DNA of 32,000 nt from Acetohalobium arabaticum DSM 5501 (GCF_000144695.1 NC_014378.1:2293289-2325288), one strand, 5' to 3'; positions 13,626 to 26,499 are shown, counted from the first letter of the stretch. Numbers and translations are program-made. The notes: generated from the sequence alone by a model not told the origin.

Positions 13626-16067
13626 TTAAGCAAAGATCATCTTCCTTCTGTTCAGTATTGTTAATACTCCCGGTCTTCCCTGGGGAATGACAATCTCATG
13701 CATAATCTCAGTATAGCTTAACCCTAAAGCCTCACCGGCCAAAAATTCAGCCTCATCAAGCGGATTAATAGAGCCGGCTTTATTGGCGGCCAACATTCCA
13801 AGACTGCTGCCTATCAGAAATATATACTCCAGATTTAACAAAGGCAGTTTAGCCTGGGAGATATAGAAGATACTGCTTAATACTACTCCGCCTAAGACAA
13901 ATCCATATAGATAACTGGAGTTTAGAACCTTAATTAATCTATTGGACTCCTGTTGGTTTCTTCTCTGAATTGTAGCCATCACTAATGACTGGTCCATAAA
14001 GAGTACAAAGATAGTAAAGACTAGAGCAATCACCGCCGTTAAAACAGCCCTCACCTCTCCTAAAATTCTAAAGAACTCTCCTCTAACATTAGGCTGTAGT
14101 AGGCCAGGAGCTGTAAATAACTGCTTGATATCATACTCCTGCTGGGCAAAATAATCCTCAACCTTAGACTCCAGAGCTCCCTGATTAACACTCTGATTGA
14201 CTAAAAAATTGAGCTCTTTGCCAGGCACAACTTGACCGGCTAAATACTTATCCAGCAGCTGAATCGTTCCTGTAATCTCTTCATCCCGCAGATCAGGCAA
14301 AACATTCTGTACATGGTCTAACTCTGTAATAATCAGTTTGAAATTCAGCTGATTTAAATCCTTTACGCCGGATTCCAGGCTGCCTAATTCAGCCATTATA
14401 CCGTCTAAATCTCCTACTACCCCTTTCACAGCTCCCTTTAGTTCAGGCGAATTCAGATTCAGATCGGAACCAGCCTGCAGCAGTTGCTGTACCCTTTTTA
14501 AATTATTATTCCACTCCTCCAGCTTATTTAAAAGCGGATTATAGGAATTAATTCTGCTAATTATTCTATCCATCTCGCCATCGGTCTTCTGCTGTAGAGT
14601 CTTAACCGAATCCCGCAGATTAGTTAACCGTTCATCCTCCACGCCTACTAAAGATAAAGCAGCTACCTGTTTTTCTAAATTCCGTTCAAAACCTTTAAAG
14701 TTAGAATTAATCTCAATTAACTTTTCTCTTAACCGGTACATCTCTGCTACACTTTCTTCTAAGCTAGTAGTAACAGCAGAAATATCATTCACCGCTGCTC
14801 TTAACTGCTCTAAATCTCTACTTCCATCCGAAACTATAGAGGTTAACTTATCCTGTTGCCCGACTAATTCTTCCTGTAACCCCTGAATCTGATCGATCCC
14901 CTGCCGATATTCTGTTAACCAGTTTAAGAAATTCTGATTAACCTTTTCAGCAGTATCTACAAGCGAAGCTAATTTAGGTACTAATTCTTTAGTCTCCCCT
15001 ACTGCTTTCTGTAACAGATAACGCGGCTGTTCTATATTAGCTACTTCAAATTTCTGTTTTACTATGCCTTCCTGACTGATTAAATAAAGGCTCTGACCTC
15101 CAATCTCAGTTCCATCGCCCCGCTTGATGATTAGCTGCAGTAATCCATCCTCTCTCTGTAGCGGAGTTAACAGAATCGTTTCTGGAGTAATCTTATCCCC
15201 CACAGCTAAAGAACCATCCTCCTGGCTCGCTAAAGCAAATCTTTCTGTCGCACTAACCTTCAAATCAGCCGGAAGCTCAGCCTCAACAATGGTAGCATAC
15301 TCCATTAAGAATTTTTTCATCTGAGTCATAGTCTTAATTAAGTCATCCAAATCTCTACGCTGGCCGGAATTGAGACTCTGAATCTCCTGGGAAGAAAACT
15401 CCTTCTGTAATTTTTGACGCAAATTCAGATTTAGTTCAGTAATCTCCTCTGGTGATTGGGCAATAGGAAATCTGATCTGTAATAATCGATAGTCATCCAG
15501 AATCCCTTCAATCTGTTCCGTAGTTTCCTGCAAGTCAGCAGACTGTTTTAGAATAATATTCAACCCGGAACCGGTAGGCAGGATAAAATCAACTTCTGAT
15601 AACTTACTTATCTTTTGATTAAAAAAGTTCTTAGTATCGCCTATCATTCCCTGTAGAGAAATCTTCGGTTCAGCCATCAAAGATACATTATCGACTCCAA
15701 TTATCTCCTCAAAGTAATTATCTACCTTAGAAAAAACAGCTTTAGTACGCAGCTTATCATCCACCTGTAGAAAGTAATTAACTGTTCCTGCTACAGTAAT
15801 TCCCTTCTTTAGCTTTGAACCAGGCAGTTTCTCCTCCTTAACCTCTTTAATTTCCTTCATAGCAGAATCAGTCAGCTCCTGATTGACTGTCAATAGAAAA
15901 TCATACTTACCATAATCCCCCATTAGACTATTGACAGTATCTCCAAAATAATTATCAGCCAAATAGCCGATTCCGCTAGCTAGACTGCTGCCAACCAAAA
16001 TAACGACAATCAGCCAAATCAACAGATCAGTTCGGAATCTATATTTTAAAATCTCCACTCTTTTCAC
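13626..16067 (-). CDS. Atypical ABC membrane subunit: TM1, ~635-aa extracytoplasmic alpha/beta plus coiled-coil domain, three TMs, then a cytoplasmic tail with an EAA-like motif
   Basis: 813 aa. Predicted TMs at aa ~15-36, 672-691, 719-736 and 746-761. There is a long heptad-like helical stretch at aa ~350-620. The tail LAGEALGLSYTEIMHEIVIPQGRPG lies at nt 13668-13757. The track start is a GTG at 16067 that overlaps the AGGAG Shine-Dalgarno sequence. A GTG at 16058, 8 nt after AGGAG, is the more likely start. Confidence 0.75.
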   Translation of the reverse strand: MKRVEILKYRFRTDLLIWLIVVILVGSSLASGIGYLADNYFGDTVNSLMGDYGKYDFLLTVNQELTDSAMKEIKEVKEEKLPGSKLKKGITVAGTVNYFLQVDDKLRTKAVFSKVDNYFEEIIGVDNVSLMAEPKISLQGMIGDTKNFFNQKISKLSEVDFILPTGSGLNIILKQSADLQETTEQIEGILDDYRLLQIRFPIAQSPEEITELNLNLRQKLQKEFSSQEIQSLNSGQRRDLDDLIKTMTQMKKFLMEYATIVEAELPADLKVSATERFALASQEDGSLAVGDKITPETILLTPLQREDGLLQLIIKRGDGTEIGGQSLYLISQEGIVKQKFEVANIEQPRYLLQKAVGETKELVPKLASLVDTAEKVNQNFLNWLTEYRQGIDQIQGLQEELVGQQDKLTSIVSDGSRDLEQLRAAVNDISAVTTSLEESVAEMYRLREKLIEINSNFKGFERNLEKQVAALSLVGVEDERLTNLRDSVKTLQQKTDGEMDRIISRINSYNPLLNKLEEWNNNLKRVQQLLQAGSDLNLNSPELKGAVKGVVGDLDGIMAELGSLESGVKDLNQLNFKLIITELDHVQNVLPDLRDEEITGTIQLLDKYLAGQVVPGKELNFLVNQSVNQGALESKVEDYFAQQEYDIKQLFTAPGLLQPNVRGEFFRILGEVRAVLTAVIALVFTIFVLFMDQSLVMATIQRRNQQESNRLIKVLNSSYLYGFVLGGVVLSSIFYISQAKLPLLNLEYIFLIGSSLGMLAANKAGSINPLDEAEFLAGEALGLSYTEIMHEIVIPQGRPGVLTILNRRKMIFA

Positions 16068-16475: not shown

Positions 16476-17135
16476 TTAAAATTGAGTATTAAAGTTAATT
16501 CCAGCTGATAGATCAGATAAATCCTCTACAGCTAAATTAAAATTAAACTCTGAAGTTAATTTAAATTTAGCACCTACATTGAATTCCTGATCAATATACT
16601 CCATCATTAAAGTAGTTACCGGCATCTGGAGATTATTCTCTTCTTTAGTAGAGATAGTTACCGGATTAATCGTTTTGCTTATTCCAGCAAACAGCCCATC
16701 AAAGTCTCCATTACCGAGTCCCACATGGCCTCTTAAATCATAATCCAGGTTACTACTGGCTACTGCATAGAAGTCTTCATCCACCAGCCCCATCGATACA
16801 GCCGGCTGACTATTATTCTCCTCTAACAGCTGTAATTTAGCATTTAAAAATAGATCATCATCAGCTCTAACCTCATCATCATACCAGTAATTGGACAGTC
16901 CTAACTCAAAATTATCATAGGCTCCGTAATTAAATAGAACTAGATTAGCTCTATCAGTATGATGATAGCCCACTGTCGCCTTATTATAAGGTAAAACATC
17001 AGCAGTAGGGGTTTTAATTAGACCGCTAAAGCCTCCTTCAAAAGCAGTACTAGCTACAGCAGTACCACCGACAGTTAACATTAATCCGACCAGTAATGTA
17101 ATTACTAATAAATTTGCATTTTTCTTTAATTTCAT
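16476..17135 (-). CDS. Small outer-membrane beta-barrel protein of unknown function
   Basis: 219 aa with a signal peptide (…GGTAVA/STAF) and alternating amphipathic beta-strand pattern. The C-terminus is …GINFNTQF, a terminal-Phe beta-signal. The N-terminal GLIKTPTADVLP faintly recalls the GLLQMPTAR start of YjbH-like OMPs. Its Shine-Dalgarno sequence GGAGGGG lies inside the last lpxD codons, with a 5-nt gap. Confidence 0.7.
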   Translation of the reverse strand: MKLKKNANLLVITLLVGLMLTVGGTAVASTAFEGGFSGLIKTPTADVLPYNKATVGYHHTDRANLVLFNYGAYDNFELGLSNYWYDDEVRADDDLFLNAKLQLLEENNSQPAVSMGLVDEDFYAVASSNLDYDLRGHVGLGNGDFDGLFAGISKTINPVTISTKEENNLQMPVTTLMMEYIDQEFNVGAKFKLTSEFNFNLAVEDLSDLSAGINFNTQF

Positions 17136-17140
17136 TAAAG

Positions 17141-18172
17141 TTACCCCTCCTTTACTTCTTCCTTCAAACTCTTAACTTCTTTTTTTAATTCTCTTAATTC
17201 CTTTACCATTGCAGGTAATTTCCGCCGTGCCGCCTTAATTCTCATTTCCGACTTATGTTCCCGGGCTGGATAGCCAGAATAGAAGGAATCAGGCGGTACA
17301 TCATTAGTAATAATACTCTGAGCCGCTACAGTAGTATTGGCTCCAACTTCTAAGTGGCCGACTACTCCAGCCTTGCCCGCTAATGTCACCCCCTCTCCAA
17401 TCTCAGCACTACCGGCAATCCCTACCTGGGCAACTAAAAGACAATCTGCTGCTATTCTAACATTATGTGCAATATGCACCAAATTATCAGTCTTAGTACC
17501 TCTGCCGATGACTGTTGATCCAGTAGTCCCCCGGTCGATAGTAACATTTGCTCCTAATTCTACATCATCCTCAATTATTACATTACCTAACTGCGGTACT
17601 TTATAATGTCCTTCGGAAGTAGTCTCAAAACCATAACCGTCACTTCCAATTACAGCTCCAGGATGAATAATTACTCTATTTCCTACTTCAGTCTGATGCA
17701 TAATTACCACATTGGGATGAATAATAGTTTCAGCACCAATCTTAACCTGAGAACCTATATGAGCTCCCGCTGCTATTCTCACATTATCTCCAATTGAAAC
17801 TCCTGATTCAATAGTAACCTGCGGTCCTATCGAAACATTACTGCCGCATTCTACATCATCAGCTATTACTGCTGTAGAATGAATTTCATTCGTTTTATAT
17901 AACTCAGGTTCAAATTCATGAGCAATCTTAGCAAAAGCCAGTCTCGGATTATCAACCTTCAGCAGAGTCTTGTCCGATTCAATCTCATCAGCAACAATAA
18001 CTGCTGCTGCCAAACTGGATTCTGCTTTCGTTAAGTACTCATCGCTCTGGGCAAAGGTAATCTCCCCTTTAGCTACATTTTCTACCCCGCCCACACCAGA
18101 AATTATGAGTTCAACTTCTCCTATTATCTCTCCATCTACTAACTCTGCCAGCTCTTTTAATGGTACCTCCAA
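17141..18172 (-). CDS. lpxD: UDP-3-O-acylglucosamine N-acyltransferase
   Basis: 343 aa with an N-terminal uridine-binding domain ([14 protein letters not shown]…), a long hexapeptide beta-helix and a C-terminal helical tail. Confidence 0.9.
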
Positions 18173-18203: not shown

Positions 18204-18620
18204 CTAATTCTTCAAGGTCTCAATAACCTTATCAGTAATATCTACTCCTCCGTATTTCACATTATTCTGATCCAAGACTACATCTATCCTATTATCTTCA
18301 GCTACTTTAGCAATAGCCTTCTGTATATCTTTCTTCACTTTAGATTCAATCTTTGATTTAATCTCCTGACTTTCTTGGTAAGCTTCTTGACGCTTCTGTT
18401 CTAATTTTTCTTCATTCTCTATATTCTCCAGTTCTGATTCATACTCAGTCTGTAAATTCTGTAATTTATTGTCCAACTGCTCCTGATAATTCTGAATGCG
18501 GCTGCTTTTTTTCACTATTTCCTGCATATTAACAACAGCTACTTTATCCTGTTGGGCACAGCCAGTAGCTAAGACTAAAACTGTCAATCCAATCAATAAT
18601 AACTTCAATCTCTTATCCAT
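18204..18620 (-). CDS. Skp/OmpH-family periplasmic chaperone paralogue, probable lipoprotein
   Basis: 138 aa with a lipobox-like LATGC. OmpH core motifs KVAVVNMQEIV (N-terminal) and AEDNRIDVVLDQNNVKYGGVDITDKVIETL (C-terminal) are separated by ~60 aa of charged helix. Confidence 0.75.
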   Translation of the reverse strand: MDKRLKLLLIGLTVLVLATGCAQQDKVAVVNMQEIVKKSSRIQNYQEQLDNKLQNLQTEYESELENIENEEKLEQKRQEAYQESQEIKSKIESKVKKDIQKAIAKVAEDNRIDVVLDQNNVKYGGVDITDKVIETLKN

Positions 18621-18644
18621 CTTAGCCCTCCTAAACTAGTTAGC

Positions 18645-19790
18645 TTATTCTTTCAATTTAACGGCTACATCTTCTGTAATATTGGTTGCAGACAGACTAC
18701 TACTATAATTAGTTAATACCACATCCAGTCCTTTATCTTCAGCTACTTCAGCTATCCTTTCTTTAATATCTTCATTAATTTTCTTTTCTAATCTATTCCT
18801 ATCCTCTTTAACCTTTTCTAAGTTAGCTGCTAACTCTTCATTTCTCTCTGTAATATTCGTATCCAGTTTCTCCTCTGTTTCCACAATTGTATTCTTCAGT
18901 TTAGTAGTCAACTCTTCTCTTTTAGTCTCTATCTCTTGCTGTAAGAGCTGATTCTGTTCTTTAATATAGTTCTGTAATTCCTGATTGGCTTCTTCTTGTT
19001 TATTATTTATTTTCTGCTGCATCTGTTCAGTCAATTTTTGATGATAGGAACGCAGCTTTTCTTCAGCCTCTTTCTGCTGTTCTGAAACATATTCCTGCAG
19101 CTTTTTCTGTAATTCTTCCTTCTTCTTAGCTAACTTTTCTTTACGTTCAGTTTCTAACTTGGCTAACTGCTGCTGGTATTCCTTCCGCTCTTTTGAGGAC
19201 AGATCCAGCATCTGCAGTTTTAATCTCAAATTCAAAATTTTCCTATTATATTCCTTATTCAACTTCTGTTGGTAGTCCTGTAATTCCGTACTCTGTTCTT
19301 CCTTTCGTTTATCTATCTTCTGGTCCAGACCTGCTCTAATTTCTCTTTTTTTCTGTTCAAACTTTTCTTCGGTCTCCTGCTTAAAACTTTCTTTATAAGC
19401 ATTTAATTCCTCTTTTGTTTTTTCAACCCGTTCATCTATCTTAGTTTGATACTCTGATTTAATATCCTGAAGGCGCTTATTTATCTGTTCATTAATACTC
19501 TGTAGATGTTCTTCTCTATTCTGAGAAGTTAAATTCAAAAAACCCTGCTGCTCTTCTAAATTAATCTGACTATCCTTAATCTGTTTATTCAACTCTTTTA
19601 ATACTTCAGCTTCAGGATGAACCGCTTTTAATTCTTCTAAATCGACTATTCCTATTTTATTTGATACAGCTTCAGATTTATTCTGACTGGATTTATCAAT
19701 AGATAAAGTGTTATTACAGCCCATCAACTGGACTACAAATAAGATACCAACTAACAAGCTCCCTACTTTCCACCATAACTTACGCTGCAT
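18645..19790 (-). CDS. Giant Skp/OmpH-like lipoprotein with a ~270-aa K/E/Q-rich coiled-coil insert
   Basis: 381 aa with lipobox LMGC. OmpH core motifs KIGIVDLEELKAV (N-terminal) and IAEVAEDKGLDVVLTNYSSSLSATNITEDVAVKL (C-terminal) flank ~270 aa of uninterrupted charged helical sequence. Confidence 0.7.
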   Translation of the reverse strand: MQRKLWWKVGSLLVGILFVVQLMGCNNTLSIDKSSQNKSEAVSNKIGIVDLEELKAVHPEAEVLKELNKQIKDSQINLEEQQGFLNLTSQNREEHLQSINEQINKRLQDIKSEYQTKIDERVEKTKEELNAYKESFKQETEEKFEQKKREIRAGLDQKIDKRKEEQSTELQDYQQKLNKEYNRKILNLRLKLQMLDLSSKERKEYQQQLAKLETERKEKLAKKKEELQKKLQEYVSEQQKEAEEKLRSYHQKLTEQMQQKINNKQEEANQELQNYIKEQNQLLQQEIETKREELTTKLKNTIVETEEKLDTNITERNEELAANLEKVKEDRNRLEKKINEDIKERIAEVAEDKGLDVVLTNYSSSLSATNITEDVAVKLKE

Positions 19791-19825
19791 CTTTATTCCT
19801 CACTTCCTTATAAGCCTTTAACAGC

Positions 19826-20320
19826 TTAATTACTTTCTGTTTGCTCTTCCATAGCCTTTAAGACCTTATCAGTCAGGTCATTACCTCCATAGACTACTGA
19901 TTCTTTATGGAGTACTACTGCAACCTCTTCTTTAGCTGCTACTTTTTTGATAGTAGCATCAATATCTTCTTTAAGCGGCTGTAACAGTTCAGCCTGGCGC
20001 TGCTTAACCTGTTCATTCAGCCTTTGGTTATAATTCTGCAGCAGTTTCTGGCGTTCATCTCCGCTAGTTTCTTCTAACTTCGATTGTAGTTCAGAACCTA
20101 ATTCTTCTTTTAAATTCTGATAATACTGGTTAAACTCAGCATCAACTTCATCCCGTTTAGGATGGTTTTTCAATAACTTACCAAAATCAACATAAGCAAC
20201 TGCTTTTTTTACTTCAGATTTAGCCTTCACCATTGGGGATAAGACAACTACTGCTCCTATTCCTAGACTCAAAACTAAAGTTAAAGCTAATATCTTGATT
20301 AATTTATTTTCTTTAAACAT
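19826..20320 (-). CDS. skp: Skp/OmpH periplasmic chaperone
   Basis: 164 aa with a signal peptide and no Cys. OmpH core motifs are AVAYVDFGKLL and AAKEEVAVVLHKESVVYGGNDLTDKVLKAM. Immediately downstream of bamA, as in classical bamA-skp-lpxD clusters. Confidence 0.8.
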   Translation of the reverse strand: MFKENKLIKILALTLVLSLGIGAVVVLSPMVKAKSEVKKAVAYVDFGKLLKNHPKRDEVDAEFNQYYQNLKEELGSELQSKLEETSGDERQKLLQNYNQRLNEQVKQRQAELLQPLKEDIDATIKKVAAKEEVAVVLHKESVVYGGNDLTDKVLKAMEEQTESN

Positions 20321-20341: not shown

Positions 20342-22090
20342 TTAGAATAATTGGCCTATACTGAAATGTAATCTAGAATCTTCTTCCTGCCAGCCGTAAT
20401 CCAGCCGCAGCTGTCCCATCGGCGTCTTGAATCTAACTCCCACTCCAGCTGATTTATTGATATCATCAAAATCAAATCCTTCATCTTTATTCCAAGCTTT
20501 ACCGGCATCAGTAAATAAGACTCCAGTAAAGTTATCAGCAAATGGAATTCTATATTCAGCATTGAATAACATAATCTCTTCCCCGACAAATTGATCATCT
20601 TTAAAACCGCGCAGAGTCTGCGGCCCACCAATTCGATAGCGTTCATGGTCAAGCCCTTCTTCATCCAGTCCTTCACTCAATCCTGCTTTAAAACGAAAGG
20701 CCCAGCTGTTATCCTCAAACATAAAGTCAGGGGTATAATCCCTAAGATCTAACTGATACTTAGTAAAGTCATTATCTCCACCTAAAGCCTGTCCGGCATA
20801 CTCAACAGAAAGCTTATCCTTACGGCCATCTGTGGGATTAAAGACATCATTCCTGGTATCTCGGACAAAACTGGAAGTCAGACTGCGAGTATTACTCTCC
20901 TGTCCTTCTGGCAGAGCTGTTTCACCTTCCAATGCTTCATTGATCGTCTTGTTATATTCATAGGTTAGATAGCCTTGCACATCATAACCTAAAGGATGTC
21001 CAAGTGTAATACTTCCTCCTTTTTCATGCTCTTCATAATCTATTCCTTCATCAGTTTCATCAGTAGGATCATAAAAACCAGTCTTTTCATCCCTGCGGTC
21101 ATAAATACTAAAACTAACAGAAGTATCACTGCCAAAAGCCCATGGTTCATAGAAGCTCAATTCATAGGTGGTATTCTCTTCTCCTACTTCCCAACGAAAG
21201 CCTAATCTCTGGGCCCGGCCTCTGAAGTTCTTCTCCTGAATCTCAAAATGTCCTAACCAGCCGTCAGAACTACTGTATCCGGCACCGACACCGACATTTC
21301 CTGTTTTACGCTCTTCTACCTTTATATTCAATGCTACTTCATTCTTCTCTGCAGAAGTCTGATTCAATTCAGGTTTGATATCCTTAAAGAAGCCTAAGTT
21401 ATAGATATCGCGCAGATCCTGCCTCATCTGGTCTGCATTAAAGACATCTCCTGGTTCCAGAGATAATTTACGTTTAATTACAAAGTCTTTAGTCTTTTCA
21501 TTTCCCTCAATCTTAATTTTTGCTACTTTACCTTCATTAATCTTTACTTTTAGCGTTCCATCCTTCTTCATTAAAACATCTTCTATTTGGGCTAATACAT
21601 AACCCTGCTCATTATAATAAGCTTCAATCTCGCGCAGTCCTTTATTTAATTGATTGGTATCTAATAGCTTATCCTCTTTAAGATCCAATATCTCTTTTAA
21701 TTTCTTGCTAGCAATCGATTTATTTCCTTTAAATTCTAAACTTTTTAAGTCAGGATTCTCTACTACTTCAAAGATTAACTTAACGCCGTTGCGGTAACTT
21801 TCAAAGGAAGCCTGTACATCAAAGAAGTATCCTAAATCAAAGATAGCCTGTAGATCATTCTGTAATTTCTGATTGGAAATCTGTTCTCCTACTTCAGTCT
21901 CAACCACTTCTAGAATCTCTTCTTTAGAAATCTTCTTATTACCCTCAACTTCGATAGCAGTAATCAAGTTATCATTCTTAAGCTCCTGCTGTGCTGCCAA
22001 CACCAGATTACTGCTAGCCAAAAAAACCGCCACAGTAAGTAACAGAACCAAAAACTTTGATTTGTTTTGCAAGTTTGTCTCCTCCTTCAA
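20342..22090 (-). CDS. bamA: BamA/Omp85-family OMP insertase with about three POTRA domains
   Basis: 582 aa with a signal peptide. Three ~75-aa POTRA-like units each start at (I/L)xVEGN / FKGN / IEGN. A ~320-aa barrel ends …RLHFSIGQLF. Confidence 0.88.
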   Translation of the reverse strand: MKEETNLQNKSKFLVLLLTVAVFLASSNLVLAAQQELKNDNLITAIEVEGNKKISKEEILEVVETEVGEQISNQKLQNDLQAIFDLGYFFDVQASFESYRNGVKLIFEVVENPDLKSLEFKGNKSIASKKLKEILDLKEDKLLDTNQLNKGLREIEAYYNEQGYVLAQIEDVLMKKDGTLKVKINEGKVAKIKIEGNEKTKDFVIKRKLSLEPGDVFNADQMRQDLRDIYNLGFFKDIKPELNQTSAEKNEVALNIKVEERKTGNVGVGAGYSSSDGWLGHFEIQEKNFRGRAQRLGFRWEVGEENTTYELSFYEPWAFGSDTSVSFSIYDRRDEKTGFYDPTDETDEGIDYEEHEKGGSITLGHPLGYDVQGYLTYEYNKTINEALEGETALPEGQESNTRSLTSSFVRDTRNDVFNPTDGRKDKLSVEYAGQALGGDNDFTKYQLDLRDYTPDFMFEDNSWAFRFKAGLSEGLDEEGLDHERYRIGGPQTLRGFKDDQFVGEEIMLFNAEYRIPFADNFTGVLFTDAGKAWNKDEGFDFDDINKSAGVGVRFKTPMGQLRLDYGWQEEDSRLHFSIGQLF

Positions 22091-22104: not shown

Positions 22105-25100
22105 TTAGTTAAAAGAAAAGTTAGTTTCTAACTCCAGTTTATACTCTTCATCATTATTCAGTGAACCATTCAGAATTATATCCTTCATGCTATCCATAAT
22201 CTGATACTCAAATCCAAGGGAATGTTCCTTATCCTCATCGAAATCTTGATTATACTTCAGCATCAAATCATCAGTTATGCTTTTACCCATTTTTATCTTC
22301 AAGCCGCTGTTGAATCCGGTATAGATCCTGAATCTATCCAGATTCCACTTATCTTCTACTGTCTCTTCAATATTAGACAGAATCTTTACATCAATTCTGG
22401 ATTCAAGCATTCTAAAAAATTCAGCCCGAATCATCTTATCATAATCTTTAGTCAGAAAACCCTGCAGTCCTCCCTGTTGAGCCAGCAGGGTAATAATCTC
22501 CTGTCTACTCAACGAAGGATTTGATTCCAGATTAATCTCCATTTGATCAGCTAAACCGCTTAATTTTAATGTAACCAACACTTCTTTTGCATCTACTTGA
22601 TTAACAGCATCTTCTTGTGAACCATTCTGAATCGCTTCTCCGTCTTCCTCTTCTTGCTTCTTATCTTCTATCGACTGTTGAATATTATCTACTTCAGTAG
22701 TAGCCGTTAAATTAAGGTAAGGAATATGTCCTTCGTACCTATCAAAGATAGCAGAACCGGATTCTAATTCAAAATCCGTATTGTAATAATTGAAGCTGCC
22801 GATTTTAGAACTTACACTCCCCTCTAATTGAATACTATCCTCAATAGTTACCAACTGTAAACTACCACTCTCCACTAGAATATCTATATTATCATTCTGA
22901 ACTCTGACATTATCGCCAGGTTCAAGATTAAGATCAAAGTTAGGTTTAATCGCTGAGTCTGAATCCTTTTTACCGGTCGGCCATTCAAAAGGAAGAGAGA
23001 TTTTAGTATCATAAACTAAAATACTGCCGCTGATCAAAGGTTCAGTTATATCTCCTTTAACTGTAATATCAAGATCATTCTCTCCCTGCCAGGAACCATG
23101 ATCGATAACAATCCTTTCTCCTGAAAAATCTAAGTCTATTTGGCCAGGCTGCCAGCCAGTAACTCCCATACTTCCCTGAGCCTTAAACTGCCCCTGACCC
23201 TGCCGGCCAGTTAAATACTTAAGCTTCAGTCTCTGATCTTTAATCTCTGCTCTACCTTCCAGATTCGAAATACTTTCTGCTAACCCAGCTATATCTAATC
23301 TGCCTGAATCTATTTCAACCTCTCCAGCAAAATCAGGCTCTGCTCTGCTGCCTGAAACTGTTAAATCAAAATTTCCTGTCCCTTCGGCTGTTTTAACTCC
23401 TTCAACTAAAAGCGGCAACAGATTCAAATTTCCGTTATCGAGATTAATATTGAGATATAAAGAGGCTTCTCTATTCTTCAACGGCAGATACCCCGTAATC
23501 CGAAATAAATTATCATCATTTACTCTCAGCTTTAATGGTTCAGTCAGCTTTACTAGCTTTCCTTTGGTTAAAGCCAGCCCTCCTTTTAAATTATCATACT
23601 TCAAAGTTCCAACTCGTCCGTCTATAATCTCTACTGTGGATTCTATATCTAACTTCTCCAGTTCACCTTCAAGCTCAGCAGTTAAATTTAAATCGCCTCC
23701 TATAGCTTCTAAAGCTGGAACTAGCTGATTAAATGGAGCTAAAGCAAAGTCTTGAGTTTCCACATTAAGGTCGGCTCCAGAACCAAAATCATAACTACCA
23801 TCTACTAACAGATATCCATTACGGTCAATATCTTTTGCTATTAATCTCCCTTTAACCTCTGGCGCCTCAAATTCACCATTGATTGTCATAGTTCCAAAGA
23901 AACTGTGCGGAATATCATGCTCTACTTCTTTAAGCGGCAGCAGCTCAATTACTTCATTCAATTGACCATTAGTTAATTCCAAAGCTAAATTTGAAAACTT
24001 CTCCTTGTTTAGATTAAGCTTCCCCTCAGCTTGATACTCTGTTGCTCCCTGAACTGCTGTCAGATTTCTTAAGTCTAGTTTATCTCCTGTATACTCTACA
24101 CTTCCTACTACTCTTTGGAAGTTATATCTATTGACTGCTAATTTATTTAACTTAACCTCACCAGCTAAAACAGGCCGCGAAATATCTCCTCTTACCTCAC
24201 CTGTAAAGTCCAAACTGCCTTGAATCGTACTACTATCAATAATATCATAATTATCTAATTCCAATTTAGCTAAATCTATATTTTCAGCCTCTAAATCAAG
24301 AGCCAGTCCTCCGTTTTTCTCAATCCGGCCGCTTCCTATAAGCTGGGACTCCACTCCAAACAATTGTATACTCTCTAATTTTAGAGTATCATTCTCCCAG
24401 CTAAAGCTTGAAGAACCTGAAGTTAATCCAATACCATGAATCTGGCCCTTTAATAAATTAATCCTTCCTGCCATTCTCAACTCATTAATAGGACCTATAA
24501 TCCTTAAGCTCCCGCTAAATCGGCCGTGAATATCATAAATCGGTTGGTCACTAATTAATTTATATAAACTTGCTACTTTTCCTGCTTTAGTCTTGAGCTC
24601 AAGATCCAGTTTAGGCTCTTTAGCTAATTCTATCTCTCCTGCCAATTGATACTTTCTCTTCTGGTCATTAATAAGAACATCATTTAAGCCTATTCTTTTC
24701 TGCCTATAGCTTATAACTCCTATTATCTCATCGACACTTCTTTGGGCATAACTAGCATCTTTTATCTGAACTTCACCTGAAAATTCTGGATCAGTAAGCT
24801 TCCCTTTTACTTGTCCCTGCAGAGATGCAGTTCCAGCTAGATCTCGATAATTATGTACACCATCCAGCTGAGATAGTTTAACATCATCAGCAGTAATACT
24901 TAAATTCAAATTTCTTTGATCATCGATTAAACCTTGAGCCTGCCACTTACTTCCATCCGATTTTAGATTTAAATCACTTATTAATAATTGATTATTACTG
25001 AACCAAAAACTGCTGTCTAAAGTATCAAACTCATACTGCATTAAAGTTCCATCAGTAACTTGAGCACTACCGAAAAGGCTTAAATCAGTAAGTGAATTCT

Positions 25101-26499
25101 GGCCGCTGATTACTAGATTACTGTTTACCTGCCCTGTTAAAGTTGAATCAGCCTGGGATATAGTAGATAGCTGTCCTAAATCAATCCCTTCTGCTTCCAA
25201 AGAAGCCGTATATAAAACTCCTTCATCTTTAGGCCAATTAATCGTTCCGCGCCCAGTTAAGATACCAGCGGCTACTTCCGTCTTAAAATCATTAAAAGTA
25301 AGCAGCTCATTCTTATACCACAGATTAAATTCCAGATCAATAACTTGGTATCCGTTAATGCTGCCAACAGGTAGTTGTAGGCTAGTCTGAATAGTCGGAT
25401 CATCTAGTGAACCCCGCATCCGCCCCTTTGCTTTTGCCATCCCTGTTAACTTTAATTCTGACGGCAGCCACTCCTCAATACTACTTAAAGCCAGCTGTGA
25501 ACTTTTATACTCCAGATAAAATGTAGGCTTCTGCCAGCCGTGCATTAGACCTGATAGCTGCAGTCTTGACTCACCAATATCAGTTACCAAGCTATTAATA
25601 TTTATTACTCGATTATTTAACTTAAACTTACTATCTATAATCTGGATTTTTGAAGTTAAATCATTAGAATCGATTATCCCTTCCTTTAACCTTATCTCTC
25701 CCTTATAATCAAGCTCAGAGAAAGACTCAAACCCCAATCCTCCTTTAATCTCTAAGTTACCACTTGCTTTTCCAGCTGTAAGCTGAAAGCCCTTTTGGGT
25801 TAAGACTTCTTTCCATTCTTCAGATAAAACATTTAAATCTAAGTTATCCAGTTCTGTAGTTAGCTTAAATTGATTTTCATCAGTACTCCCATTAACAACT
25901 AGATTCTCCGTTTCAGTCTCAGGCAGAGTTAGATCTAACCTTCCTTTCAGATTATCTTTAGTTAGATTCAGACCGGCTTGATTAATTCTGATCTTACTAA
26001 TACCGTCTATTAGATTAGTAACTGCCATTCCATCCTCTATAGCTATCCGGCCGGAATAATGGTTTAAAATTGGAGCAGAACCAAATAAGTCCTGAAGATT
26101 ATCTGTACCATCATCTGCCTGATCATTCGAAGTCTGCTTATAGATAAGGCGGGGACTAACTAATTTAATCTCTTTAATACTACCTAATGAATCAGTCTTA
26201 CCCGCTACAATATCCAGCAAGTCATAGGATAATTCAACCTGCTCAACAGATAAAAATCCATCTTCTTTAAGTTCCAGACTAAAGTTATAGAGTTTTAATT
26301 CATTAACTCCGCTAATTTCAATTTTATCTAAGTTAACATTATACCCATATCTTGACTCTAATTCCATAACTAATCTATCCTTAATGCTTGTTAACACTCC
26401 ATCCCATTTTAGCGACATAGTCATAAACAAGGATGCTCCCAAGATAAGAATTACCACCCAAGGAATAATTCTTCTATATTTTCGGGCTACCGGCATCAT
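22105..26499 (-). CDS. tamB: TamB/AsmA-like giant inner-membrane-anchored periplasm-spanning protein (DUF490-type C-terminus)
   Basis: 1464 aa with an N-terminal TM anchor (IIPWVVILILGASLFMTM) and >1200 aa of repetitive beta-rich sequence. The C-terminal region has NPSLSRQEIITLLAQQGG, as in DUF490. Stops 14 nt before bamA. Confidence 0.8.
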   Translation of the reverse strand: MMPVARKYRRIIPWVVILILGASLFMTMSLKWDGVLTSIKDRLVMELESRYGYNVNLDKIEISGVNELKLYNFSLELKEDGFLSVEQVELSYDLLDIVAGKTDSLGSIKEIKLVSPRLIYKQTSNDQADDGTDNLQDLFGSAPILNHYSGRIAIEDGMAVTNLIDGISKIRINQAGLNLTKDNLKGRLDLTLPETETENLVVNGSTDENQFKLTTELDNLDLNVLSEEWKEVLTQKGFQLTAGKASGNLEIKGGLGFESFSELDYKGEIRLKEGIIDSNDLTSKIQIIDSKFKLNNRVININSLVTDIGESRLQLSGLMHGWQKPTFYLEYKSSQLALSSIEEWLPSELKLTGMAKAKGRMRGSLDDPTIQTSLQLPVGSINGYQVIDLEFNLWYKNELLTFNDFKTEVAAGILTGRGTINWPKDEGVLYTASLEAEGIDLGQLSTISQADSTLTGQVNSNLVISGQNSLTDLSLFGSAQVTDGTLMQYEFDTLDSSFWFSNNQLLISDLNLKSDGSKWQAQGLIDDQRNLNLSITADDVKLSQLDGVHNYRDLAGTASLQGQVKGKLTDPEFSGEVQIKDASYAQRSVDEIIGVISYRQKRIGLNDVLINDQKRKYQLAGEIELAKEPKLDLELKTKAGKVASLYKLISDQPIYDIHGRFSGSLRIIGPINELRMAGRINLLKGQIHGIGLTSGSSSFSWENDTLKLESIQLFGVESQLIGSGRIEKNGGLALDLEAENIDLAKLELDNYDIIDSSTIQGSLDFTGEVRGDISRPVLAGEVKLNKLAVNRYNFQRVVGSVEYTGDKLDLRNLTAVQGATEYQAEGKLNLNKEKFSNLALELTNGQLNEVIELLPLKEVEHDIPHSFFGTMTINGEFEAPEVKGRLIAKDIDRNGYLLVDGSYDFGSGADLNVETQDFALAPFNQLVPALEAIGGDLNLTAELEGELEKLDIESTVEIIDGRVGTLKYDNLKGGLALTKGKLVKLTEPLKLRVNDDNLFRITGYLPLKNREASLYLNINLDNGNLNLLPLLVEGVKTAEGTGNFDLTVSGSRAEPDFAGEVEIDSGRLDIAGLAESISNLEGRAEIKDQRLKLKYLTGRQGQGQFKAQGSMGVTGWQPGQIDLDFSGERIVIDHGSWQGENDLDITVKGDITEPLISGSILVYDTKISLPFEWPTGKKDSDSAIKPNFDLNLEPGDNVRVQNDNIDILVESGSLQLVTIEDSIQLEGSVSSKIGSFNYYNTDFELESGSAIFDRYEGHIPYLNLTATTEVDNIQQSIEDKKQEEEDGEAIQNGSQEDAVNQVDAKEVLVTLKLSGLADQMEINLESNPSLSRQEIITLLAQQGGLQGFLTKDYDKMIRAEFFRMLESRIDVKILSNIEETVEDKWNLDRFRIYTGFNSGLKIKMGKSITDDLMLKYNQDFDEDKEHSLGFEYQIMDSMKDIILNGSLNNDEEYKLELETNFSFN

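Follow-up and report, generated by a model that had tools for sequence, protein, structure and literature searches.

A long Skp/OmpH paralogue with a conserved, fixed-length helical hairpin, predicted to be membrane-anchored, between bamA and lpxD in Acetohalobium arabaticum and its relatives

This analysis concerns a 32,000-nucleotide (nt) stretch, referred to below as the window, of the complete genome (2,469,596 bp) of Acetohalobium arabaticum DSM 5501 (GCF_000144695.1, NC_014378.1:2293289-2325288), a salt-loving diderm (two-membraned) Firmicute, and in particular a trio of Skp/OmpH genes flanked by bamA and lpxD. The three co-directional genes, all on the minus strand, are designated skpA, skpL and skpC. 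A preliminary description of the sequence had proposed OmpH-type genes for proteins of 164, 381 and 138 amino acids at this place, and open reading frames (ORFs) were found exactly at the coordinates that it gave. A good Shine-Dalgarno sequence is located 6–8 nt 5' of the ATG in each gene, so the predicted N-termini are reliable, and the intergenic gaps flanking the three ORFs are 21–35 nt long. The trio represents real, ancient and non-redundant (functionally split) Skp paralogues, and the large insert of the middle protein, SkpL, is a conserved helical hairpin of fixed length, not a low-complexity accident. The genes (protein lengths in amino acids, aa) are:

19826..20320, minus strand: skpA, short Skp/OmpH paralogue, 164 aa (ORF; Pfam OmpH 64.4 bits)
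18645..19790, minus strand: skpL, long Skp/OmpH paralogue, 381 aa, predicted lipoprotein with a hairpin of ~20 nm (ORF; OmpH; AlphaFold2 model)
18204..18620, minus strand: skpC, short Skp/OmpH paralogue, 138 aa, predicted lipoprotein (ORF; Pfam OmpH 56.3 bits)

Both short proteins exceed the curated cut-off of the Pfam OmpH family (PF03938; 32.4 bits). SkpL scored 30.9 bits as a single match, slightly below this cut-off, and 33.7 bits when its in-frame matches in a six-frame genome scan were summed; the match spans residues 277–379, i.e. the C-terminal part of the protein. SkpL orthologues (P0004–P0008) carry a precomputed PF03938 annotation, and that of Selenihalanaerobacter shriftii (Halanaerobiales, Halobacteroidaceae; Natroniella acetigena is another relative within the order) is named 'OmpH family outer membrane protein' by NCBI. 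Database labels for such long proteins say just OmpH/Skp family. An export signal and a place in the bamA-skp-lpxD cluster, both marks of Skp/OmpH proteins, were also found. The core motifs noticed earlier are present in all three proteins roughly as described: VAYVD (SkpA), IGIVD (SkpL) and VAVVN (SkpC) at the N-terminal side, and AVVL...DLT (SkpA), DVVL...NIT (SkpL) and DVVL...DIT (SkpC) at the C-terminal side. The landmarks of the two cores lie 309 residues apart in SkpL versus 92 and 85 in the two short proteins. For the short proteins ~60–70 aa had first been given; in the SkpC model ~65 of the residues between the landmarks are helical.

An AlphaFold2 (AF2) monomer model of SkpL was obtained from an 18-sequence alignment (mean predicted local distance difference test score, pLDDT, 85.6), and its elements were assigned with DSSP. 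In the model, a disordered segment (residues 20–42) is followed by a strand (46–48), a helix (51–57), a long helix (61–194), a turn (195–198), another long helix (199–352), two strands (357–359 and 369–370) and a final helix (372–380). The parts of the protein, all encoded on the minus strand, are:

19716..19790, minus strand: SkpL signal peptide and lipobox, residues 1–25, ending in QLMGC with Cys25 (sequence; conserved Gly-Cys)
19656..19715, minus strand: SkpL polar linker between the predicted lipid anchor and the Skp body, residues 26–45 (pLDDT < 50 for 20–42)
19611..19655, minus strand: SkpL N-terminal Skp core, residues 46–60, with strand IGIVD, a short helix and a conserved His-Pro (model; conservation peak 41–50)
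19209..19610, minus strand: SkpL arm helix 1, residues 61–194, 134 residues (DSSP on the AF2 model; no Pro, two Gly)
19143..19250, minus strand: SkpL hairpin tip, residues 181–216, comprising Y181-x5-N187-L-R-L190, the turn LDLS (195–198) and E215-R216 (invariant columns; top conservation)
18735..19196, minus strand: SkpL arm helix 2, residues 199–352, 154 residues (DSSP on the AF2 model; no Pro, no Gly)
18648..18734, minus strand: SkpL C-terminal Skp core, residues 353–381, DVVL...NIT and the final helix (model; Pfam OmpH match)

In the model, the insert of SkpL forms a single antiparallel hairpin of two helices, 134 and 154 residues long, with pLDDT > 90 over most of the arm length; at ~0.15 nm per residue, helix 1 corresponds to ~20 nm. 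This bears out the expected hairpin with arms of ~135 residues and ~20 nm. As for the ~270 aa of uninterrupted helix with which that expectation began, the long helix was correct and the figure was not: 288 of the 309 inter-landmark residues are helical in the model, interrupted by a single 4-residue turn. In the AF2 model of SkpC (pLDDT 82.4) the elements follow one another as in SkpL (strand, short helix, helix, turn, helix, strand, strand, helix), the arm helices being 25 and 40 residues long. Compared with these, the arm helices of SkpL are ~109 (25 to 134) and ~114 (40 to 154) residues longer, and SkpL can therefore be described as a Skp in which both arm helices were lengthened to a matching extent, as a hairpin requires. 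Solved structures matched by the SkpC model are those of E. coli Skp (1SG2/1U2M; E 2e-5, probability 1.00), SkpA of a Type 9 secretion system (T9SS; 8GL8) and a Caulobacter OmpH-like protein (4KQT). SkpL is assigned to the Skp family on its borderline OmpH match and on an element order shared with SkpC, whose model fits solved Skp structures.

Hydrophobic residues recur along the SkpL arms with a periodicity of 3.67–3.7, not 3.5, as seen in the protein of this window and in the profile of the whole family. The arms are therefore composed of 11-residue (hendecad) repeats and form nearly straight helices; in helix 2 the repeat can be seen on writing the sequence in rows of 11. Strongly conserved hydrophobic positions number ~1.7–2 per 11 residues, which equals one narrow seam, and such a single seam suffices for pairing of the two arm helices.

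Conservation of the trio was followed in 35 loci of the class Halanaerobiia, drawn from 12 GTDB families. The order bamA-skpA-skpL-skpC-lpxD was found in 30 of them, while in the other five one gene was undetected by the BLAST step or the contig ended; a match to the long-Skp profile was present in 83 of the 102 class genomes searched. In four families the middle gene has the full-core form (375–434 aa) with both Skp cores kept. A survey of insert length among relatives, which had been suggested at the outset, revealed fixed values: the distance from the N-core to the tip Asn is 138 residues and that from the tip Asn to the C-core 171 residues in all 16 Halanaerobiia orthologues measured, with no indels, at an identity that falls to ~25% among the most distant full-core members. 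The remaining length variation (365–425 aa overall in the measured orthologues) is confined to the N-terminal linker, which places 43–94 residues before the N-core. In Sysuimicrobiota, a second phylum described below, the corresponding distances are 131 + 172 (9 of 10 sequences) or 131 + 168 (the remaining one). Conservation per block peaks at the tip (0.70 for residues 181–190), above both Skp cores; Y181, N187, L188, R189, E215 and R216 are invariant, and nowhere along the arms is the sequence more hydrophobic than at the tip.

Other Halanaerobiia families (f7–f13) have a coreless middle gene of 294–326 aa, which retains a hydrophobic N-terminus of 20–25 residues and the hairpin and has no DVVL...DIT. 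Such genes occur at loci L025–L041 (from G031–G098), e.g. L025:1972-2946 and L031:1982-2869, and the tip motif, NL[RK]L, is recognisable in several of them (e.g. L025, L027 and L031). Their N-terminus is often followed by [GS]-x-A-S-P-x-P. A description of the 294–326 aa forms as surely transmembrane-anchored was dropped, as the conserved [GS]-x-A-S-P could be a signal peptidase I site, and only the proteins of family f5 look clearly uncleavable. In family f3, a fourth Skp-like gene (164–175 aa) is inserted between skpC and lpxD (L019:2965-3459, L020:3423-3950 and L021:999-1520); in its product, a short coiled segment comes after a transmembrane-like N-terminus.

The three proteins differ in their export signals, and the types of signal proposed for them at first all hold. 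The signal peptide of SkpA consists of a charged n-region and a long hydrophobic stretch and ends in an AxA-type cleavage site (VKA/K) with no cysteine, and no cysteine was found at the signal end in any of the 36 proteins of the SkpA group; SkpA is predicted from its sequence to be soluble in the periplasm. In SkpC, the n-region MDKRLK and a hydrophobic stretch precede ATGC with Cys21, which fits the broad lipobox pattern. Gly20-Cys21 is invariant in 10 of 10 sequences from two phyla, most Halanaerobiia families keep the lipobox in SkpC, and the cysteine precedes the first core strand by 5 residues here and by 2–5 across the ten sequences. In one genome of family f10 the third gene encodes a 184-aa Skp-like protein (L036:2639-3193), in which a transmembrane-type N-terminus plus an acidic Pro/Glu linker takes the place of the lipobox. 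In SkpL, the n-region MQRKLWWK and a hydrophobic stretch lead to LMGC (Cys25), with L at -3, G at -1 and the unusual residues M at -2 and Q at -4. SkpL and SkpC both have the n-region, h-region and [GAS]-Cys lipobox of lipoproteins, the genome encodes Lgt, LspA and, for triacylation, Lnt, and both proteins are predicted to be lipidated.

The Gly-Cys of SkpL is conserved at a level of at least 90% in an alignment of 10 SkpL-type sequences (A1). The cysteine is kept in the window's own family f1 (LVGC, VVAC and VTGC), in the genus Natroniella of f2, in part of f3 and in Sysuimicrobiota; it is absent in other Halanaerobiia families, and conservation of the cysteine thus holds for SkpL in part only. 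Orthologues of family f5 have instead a hydrophobic N-terminal segment of 20–25 residues without a plausible cleavage site, and some further Halanaerobiia N-termini are ambiguous as to anchor type. The same anchoring pattern of the trio was found across the class and in Sysuimicrobiota.

Long Skps are not limited to Halanaerobiia. Homologues rich in A/R were found in metagenome-assembled genomes (MAGs) that carry the labels ANGP1, Armatimonadota or Candidatus Sysuimicrobiota; of 81 Sysuimicrobiota genomes sampled, 74 contain a long-Skp match. In the loci of this phylum, bamA is followed by an extra gene, three skp genes in the order short, long, short, and lpxD; the long Skp and the second short one have a lipobox, the first short one does not. 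The extra gene, about 420–470 aa long, lies between bamA and the first skp (L043:2810-4213, L049:3105-4418 and L054:1755-3008). A tree was constructed from 51 sequences, representing ten Halanaerobiia and six MAG loci (other loci were left out), with SkpL trimmed to the cores and the proximal arms. The A, L and C paralogues were each placed on one side of a branch with both phyla inside (support 99/98, 100/98 and 97/87, respectively), which indicates that the triplication and the elongation are older than the split of the lineages, or that the whole block was transferred.

A search of 1.84 billion representative proteins with the long-Skp profile yielded 853 matches at E <= 1e-3 and 42 at E <= 1e-30. 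As E-values of coiled-coil-rich profiles can be inflated by composition, reliance was placed on full-length matches with both cores. Among the matches listed, lengths reach ~650 aa and many proteins have a lipobox and both cores. In Negativicutes (Thermosinus, Sporolituus, Sporomusaceae and Veillonellales MAGs) a lipobox form of ~300–320 aa has its two cores ~240 residues apart, with arms estimated at 105–110 residues; a search of this form revealed no NLRL tip motif. Two proteins from Bacillota MAGs (P0047 and P0178; 540 and 656 aa) match positions 23–370 of the long-Skp profile and end in a Skp-like C-terminal core, and classes of ~460–480 aa and ~640 aa likewise occur among the representative matches listed.

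The wider neighbourhood, in minus-strand order, comprises tamB, bamA, skpA, skpL, skpC, lpxD and then a gene for a 219-aa putative outer-membrane protein. The genes flanking the trio are:

22105..26499, minus strand: tamB, which probably heads the transcription unit (Pfam TamB 6.9e-41)
20342..22090, minus strand: bamA, 582 aa, POTRA repeats and Omp85 barrel, directly upstream of skpA (Pfam Omp85 2.4e-55, POTRA 5.2e-40)
17141..18172, minus strand: lpxD, directly downstream of skpC (Pfam LpxD and Hexapep matches)

A consensus scan, in which the counts of promoter-like and terminator-like sites equalled chance expectation and which is suggestive only, revealed a sole good promoter-like site on the minus strand, just 5' of tamB (26530-26503), a strong terminator-like hairpin ahead of it (26695-26664), and no terminator-like site in the intergenic gaps of the tamB-to-lpxD block. 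The three skp genes are probably co-transcribed with tamB, bamA and lpxD. The 219-aa exported protein encoded after lpxD (16476-17135, minus strand) shows in residues 1–145 a weak YjbH match (PF06082, 29.8 bits vs a cut-off of 24) and is possibly a small outer-membrane protein. The next gene block is headed by a gene (13626-16067, minus strand) for an 813-aa protein whose long extracytoplasmic region is rich in coiled coil and whose C-terminal part contains membrane segments; no Pfam family scored above its cut-off for this protein. Elsewhere in the genome, a SurA_N-type protein (31.8 bits) is encoded at G000:C1:784586-784915.

Several known systems are instructive for comparison. E. coli Skp (HlpA/OmpH; 1SG2 and 1U2M) is a single soluble, basic protein of ~140 residues with arms of ~6–7 nm. 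It shares with the trio the hidden Markov model family, the topology (strand body with an inserted hairpin) and the bamA-lpxD slot, whereas A. arabaticum has three acidic paralogues, two with lipoboxes, and the arm helices of its SkpL are ~4–5 times longer, with an 11-residue repeat, a conserved tip motif and a Pfam score that, as a single match, stays below the cut-off. Lpp (Braun's lipoprotein) is a periplasmic ruler, a 58-residue parallel trimer covalently linked to peptidoglycan. Like SkpL, for which the lipid anchor is predicted, it is an anchored, all-helical coiled coil, and its length matters for envelope spacing; SkpL, in contrast, folds in the model into an antiparallel hairpin, has the end strands of a Skp and shows no peptidoglycan-binding feature in the Pfam search; a ruler role of SkpL would be hypothetical.

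The preliminary description contrasted the trio with the single skp of most diderms, which is true of diderms in general, yet three copies are the published norm of diderm Firmicutes. Three Skp copies downstream of bamA are reported for these bacteria by Antunes et al. 2016 (PMC5007114), and the window carries that block in a genome of Halanaerobiales (tamB-bamA-three skp-lpxD); diderm Firmicutes and their relatives are also reported to lack BamB-E and a classical Lpp tether (PMC5007114). For Veillonella parvula, three tandem copies (vpar_0528-0530) plus a fourth are reported, all detected in the outer-membrane fraction (PMC5491611), and for A. longum skp1 is reported to be co-regulated with bamA (PMC13018214). 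As far as the passages of these three papers on Skp and lipoproteins go, there is no mention of a long, anchored middle copy or of a lipoprotein as the third. A literature search for a long, anchored or lipoprotein Skp returned nothing relevant and no paper describing SkpL. The triplication was thus already known, and on the evidence of this search the long middle copy, predicted to be anchored, is an old, apparently undescribed variant.

Two further comparisons concern what such a protein might do. Flavobacterium johnsoniae SkpA is no free chaperone but a built-in component of the Type 9 secretion Extended Translocon (8GL8; PMC10994853); there, too, several non-redundant Skp paralogues are encoded per operon, and the SkpC model matches 8GL8 (E ~1e-4), but the 8GL8 chains (152–173 residues) have ordinary arms and belong to another phylum and another partner system. 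The MlaD protein of V. parvula, at ~23.5 nm, is of a size to span a periplasm of 24.2 nm ('bridges instead of boats', PMC10665443). The long MlaD of V. parvula and other Terrabacteria and SkpL share one concept, namely that a component which is short in E. coli and works there with soluble carriers has reached a long, helical, periplasm-spanning size. MlaD, however, is of an unrelated family and forms a hexameric lipid-carrying tunnel, and for SkpL the spanning can only be conjectured.

Whether SkpL is a membrane-anchored, long-reach Skp that works with soluble SkpA and membrane-flush SkpC is, in our judgement, an even call, and it is the reading that we favour. SkpA would be the ordinary soluble form, free in the periplasm. 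SkpC, with a lipid-modified cysteine 2–5 residues before the first core strand, would have its body flat on a membrane. SkpL would possess a lipid anchor, a flexible linker of ~20 residues, normal Skp end strands, a straight hairpin of ~20 nm and a more hydrophobic tip; it would presumably form a trimer, stand on one membrane and reach most of the periplasm. The ~20 nm of the hairpin, plus the body and the linker, are to be set against 24.2 +/- 1.8 nm in V. parvula (PMC10665443), the sole citable periplasm width for a diderm Firmicute, though one of another order; the likeness of hairpin and periplasm suggested earlier thus holds. The membrane in question may be the cytoplasmic one, because family f5 has a transmembrane-type N-terminus. 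From there SkpL would hold or guide its putative clients, unfolded outer-membrane proteins (OMPs), towards BamA, with the tip acting as a docking site for a partner on the far side or as a site that closes a cage, while SkpA and SkpC would serve the free and the membrane-proximal steps, respectively. Taken as a whole, the original idea of an anchored spanning or ruler structure instead of a soluble chaperone is partly supported.

Several observations weigh against a long-reach chaperone of this kind. All three mature proteins are acidic (computed isoelectric points 4.9–5.4), unlike the basic Skp of E. coli. Outside the seam, the arms of SkpL are very hydrophilic and K/E/Q-rich, with a net charge of ~0 to -5, which suits a stalk better than a client-binding cavity. 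A Foldseek search of the SkpL model against PDB gave nothing significant (best E 0.05), with Skp at rank 34 (probability 0.69); the top shapes were long antiparallel hairpins, i.e. the chemoreceptor 2CH7 and SMC/MukB arms, and are useful as a shape comparison only. The middle gene of several Halanaerobiia families is devoid of the C-terminal Skp core, and in these lineages the conserved function therefore cannot need the full Skp body. The lipobox of SkpL is atypical at -2/-4, so that strict patterns fail, and many orthologues have non-lipobox N-termini instead. Finally, LolA (PF03548) had no match at E <= 0.001 in the whole genome; LolA homologues are reported for Halanaerobiales (PMC5007114), and the missed match is probably a matter of sensitivity.

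A rival view is that SkpL is mainly a structural spacer or strut, i.e. a rigid, anchored hairpin whose fixed length sets or senses the distance between envelope layers, like Lpp or the OmpM stalk, and whose tip would touch peptidoglycan, the other membrane or a fixed partner. We hold this to be unlikely. In its favour, arm length is exactly conserved, without indels, across families at ~25% identity, the straight hendecad helix has a single seam and a highly charged surface, several families keep the hairpin and the tip without the C-terminal Skp core, and the SkpA of T9SS shows a Skp scaffold turned into a structural element (PMC10994853). However, the Pfam search of SkpL detected no peptidoglycan-binding, second anchoring or other partner domain, so that the conserved tip is the only candidate for an Lpp-like attachment; skpL is located within an OMP-assembly operon, between two ordinary Skps, and its product retains the Skp cores in this genome; and tethering of the outer membrane in these phyla has already been assigned to OmpM (PMC10628300). 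Nor is a fixed length specific to SkpL, since the arm span of the short paralogues also clusters at a mode of ~84 residues, by a noisy regular-expression measure that at times mis-picked the N-core motif inside signal peptides and of which only the mode is usable. Another arrangement, a single A:L:C heterotrimeric Skp resembling an anchored jellyfish with one very long and two short tentacles, would account for the trimeric nature of Skp, for three tandem paralogues in a fixed order across phyla and for the compatible N- and C-terminal core strands of all three proteins in this genome. It appears decidedly improbable, given that the middle gene is coreless in many Halanaerobiia families while A and C persist, that genomes of family f3 have a fourth Skp gene, and that anchoring differs, a soluble A standing beside L and C that are predicted to be lipidated.

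The 11-residue repeat also invites comparison with the amphipathic helices of apolipoproteins or LEA-like 3-11 helices, in which case the arms would bind lipid or lipopolysaccharide, handle these molecules or lie along a membrane. The periodicity of 3.67, the lipid A genes in the neighbourhood and weak matches of SkpL to Pfam Apolipoprotein (1.2e-7, far below the cut-off) and of the long-Skp profile to PDB apolipoprotein chains (best 1.3e-5) point in this direction. Homology to apolipoproteins was nevertheless rejected, as these matches are most simply attributed to the shared repeat period and composition, and with a narrow seam of ~2 positions per 11, typical of helix-helix pairing and not of a broad lipid face, with both helices paired in the AF2 model at pLDDT > 90 and with Skp-type end strands present, lipid binding has very little to recommend it. 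Least credible of all is that an ordinary Skp gained the insert as a lineage-specific expansion of low complexity and no function. The K/E/Q-rich composition would fit such an origin, which the preliminary description had itself named among the outcomes that would overturn its proposal, but the class-wide presence and occurrence in a second phylum, the fixed length of indel-free arms, the conserved tip motif and the regular hydrophobic seam already contradict it.

The transit of OMPs through the periplasm is known almost wholly from E. coli, where transport of the clients falls to small soluble chaperones. A bolder form of the favoured long-reach Skp is that SkpL constitutes a fixed bridge, in which hendecad arms of exact length would extend from the cytoplasmic membrane to BamA or the outer membrane, the tip would dock there, OMPs would travel along it, and arm length would be co-adapted with, or even set, the width of the periplasm; we advance this tentatively, as a possibility that we hold to be unlikely. 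SkpL is a candidate for such a bridge because it is predicted to be lipid-anchored, has invariant 20-nm arms and a distal tip, is conserved in Halanaerobiia and Sysuimicrobiota and has related forms in Negativicutes. The matter is open to testing in a genetically tractable Negativicute with a long lipobox Skp, where a bridge could be distinguished from a boat, the role of the second and third copies established and arm length compared with periplasm width; V. parvula, with its three tandem skp genes, is one tractable species. If SkpL turned out to be only a stalk-like spacer, it would be a second case of a Skp scaffold repurposed as a structural element. As it stands, SkpL is a good candidate for the protein-side equivalent of the periplasm-spanning MlaD (PMC10665443), and, if the bridge exists, the OMPs of diderm Terrabacteria would use a standing bridge and not a diffusing chaperone.

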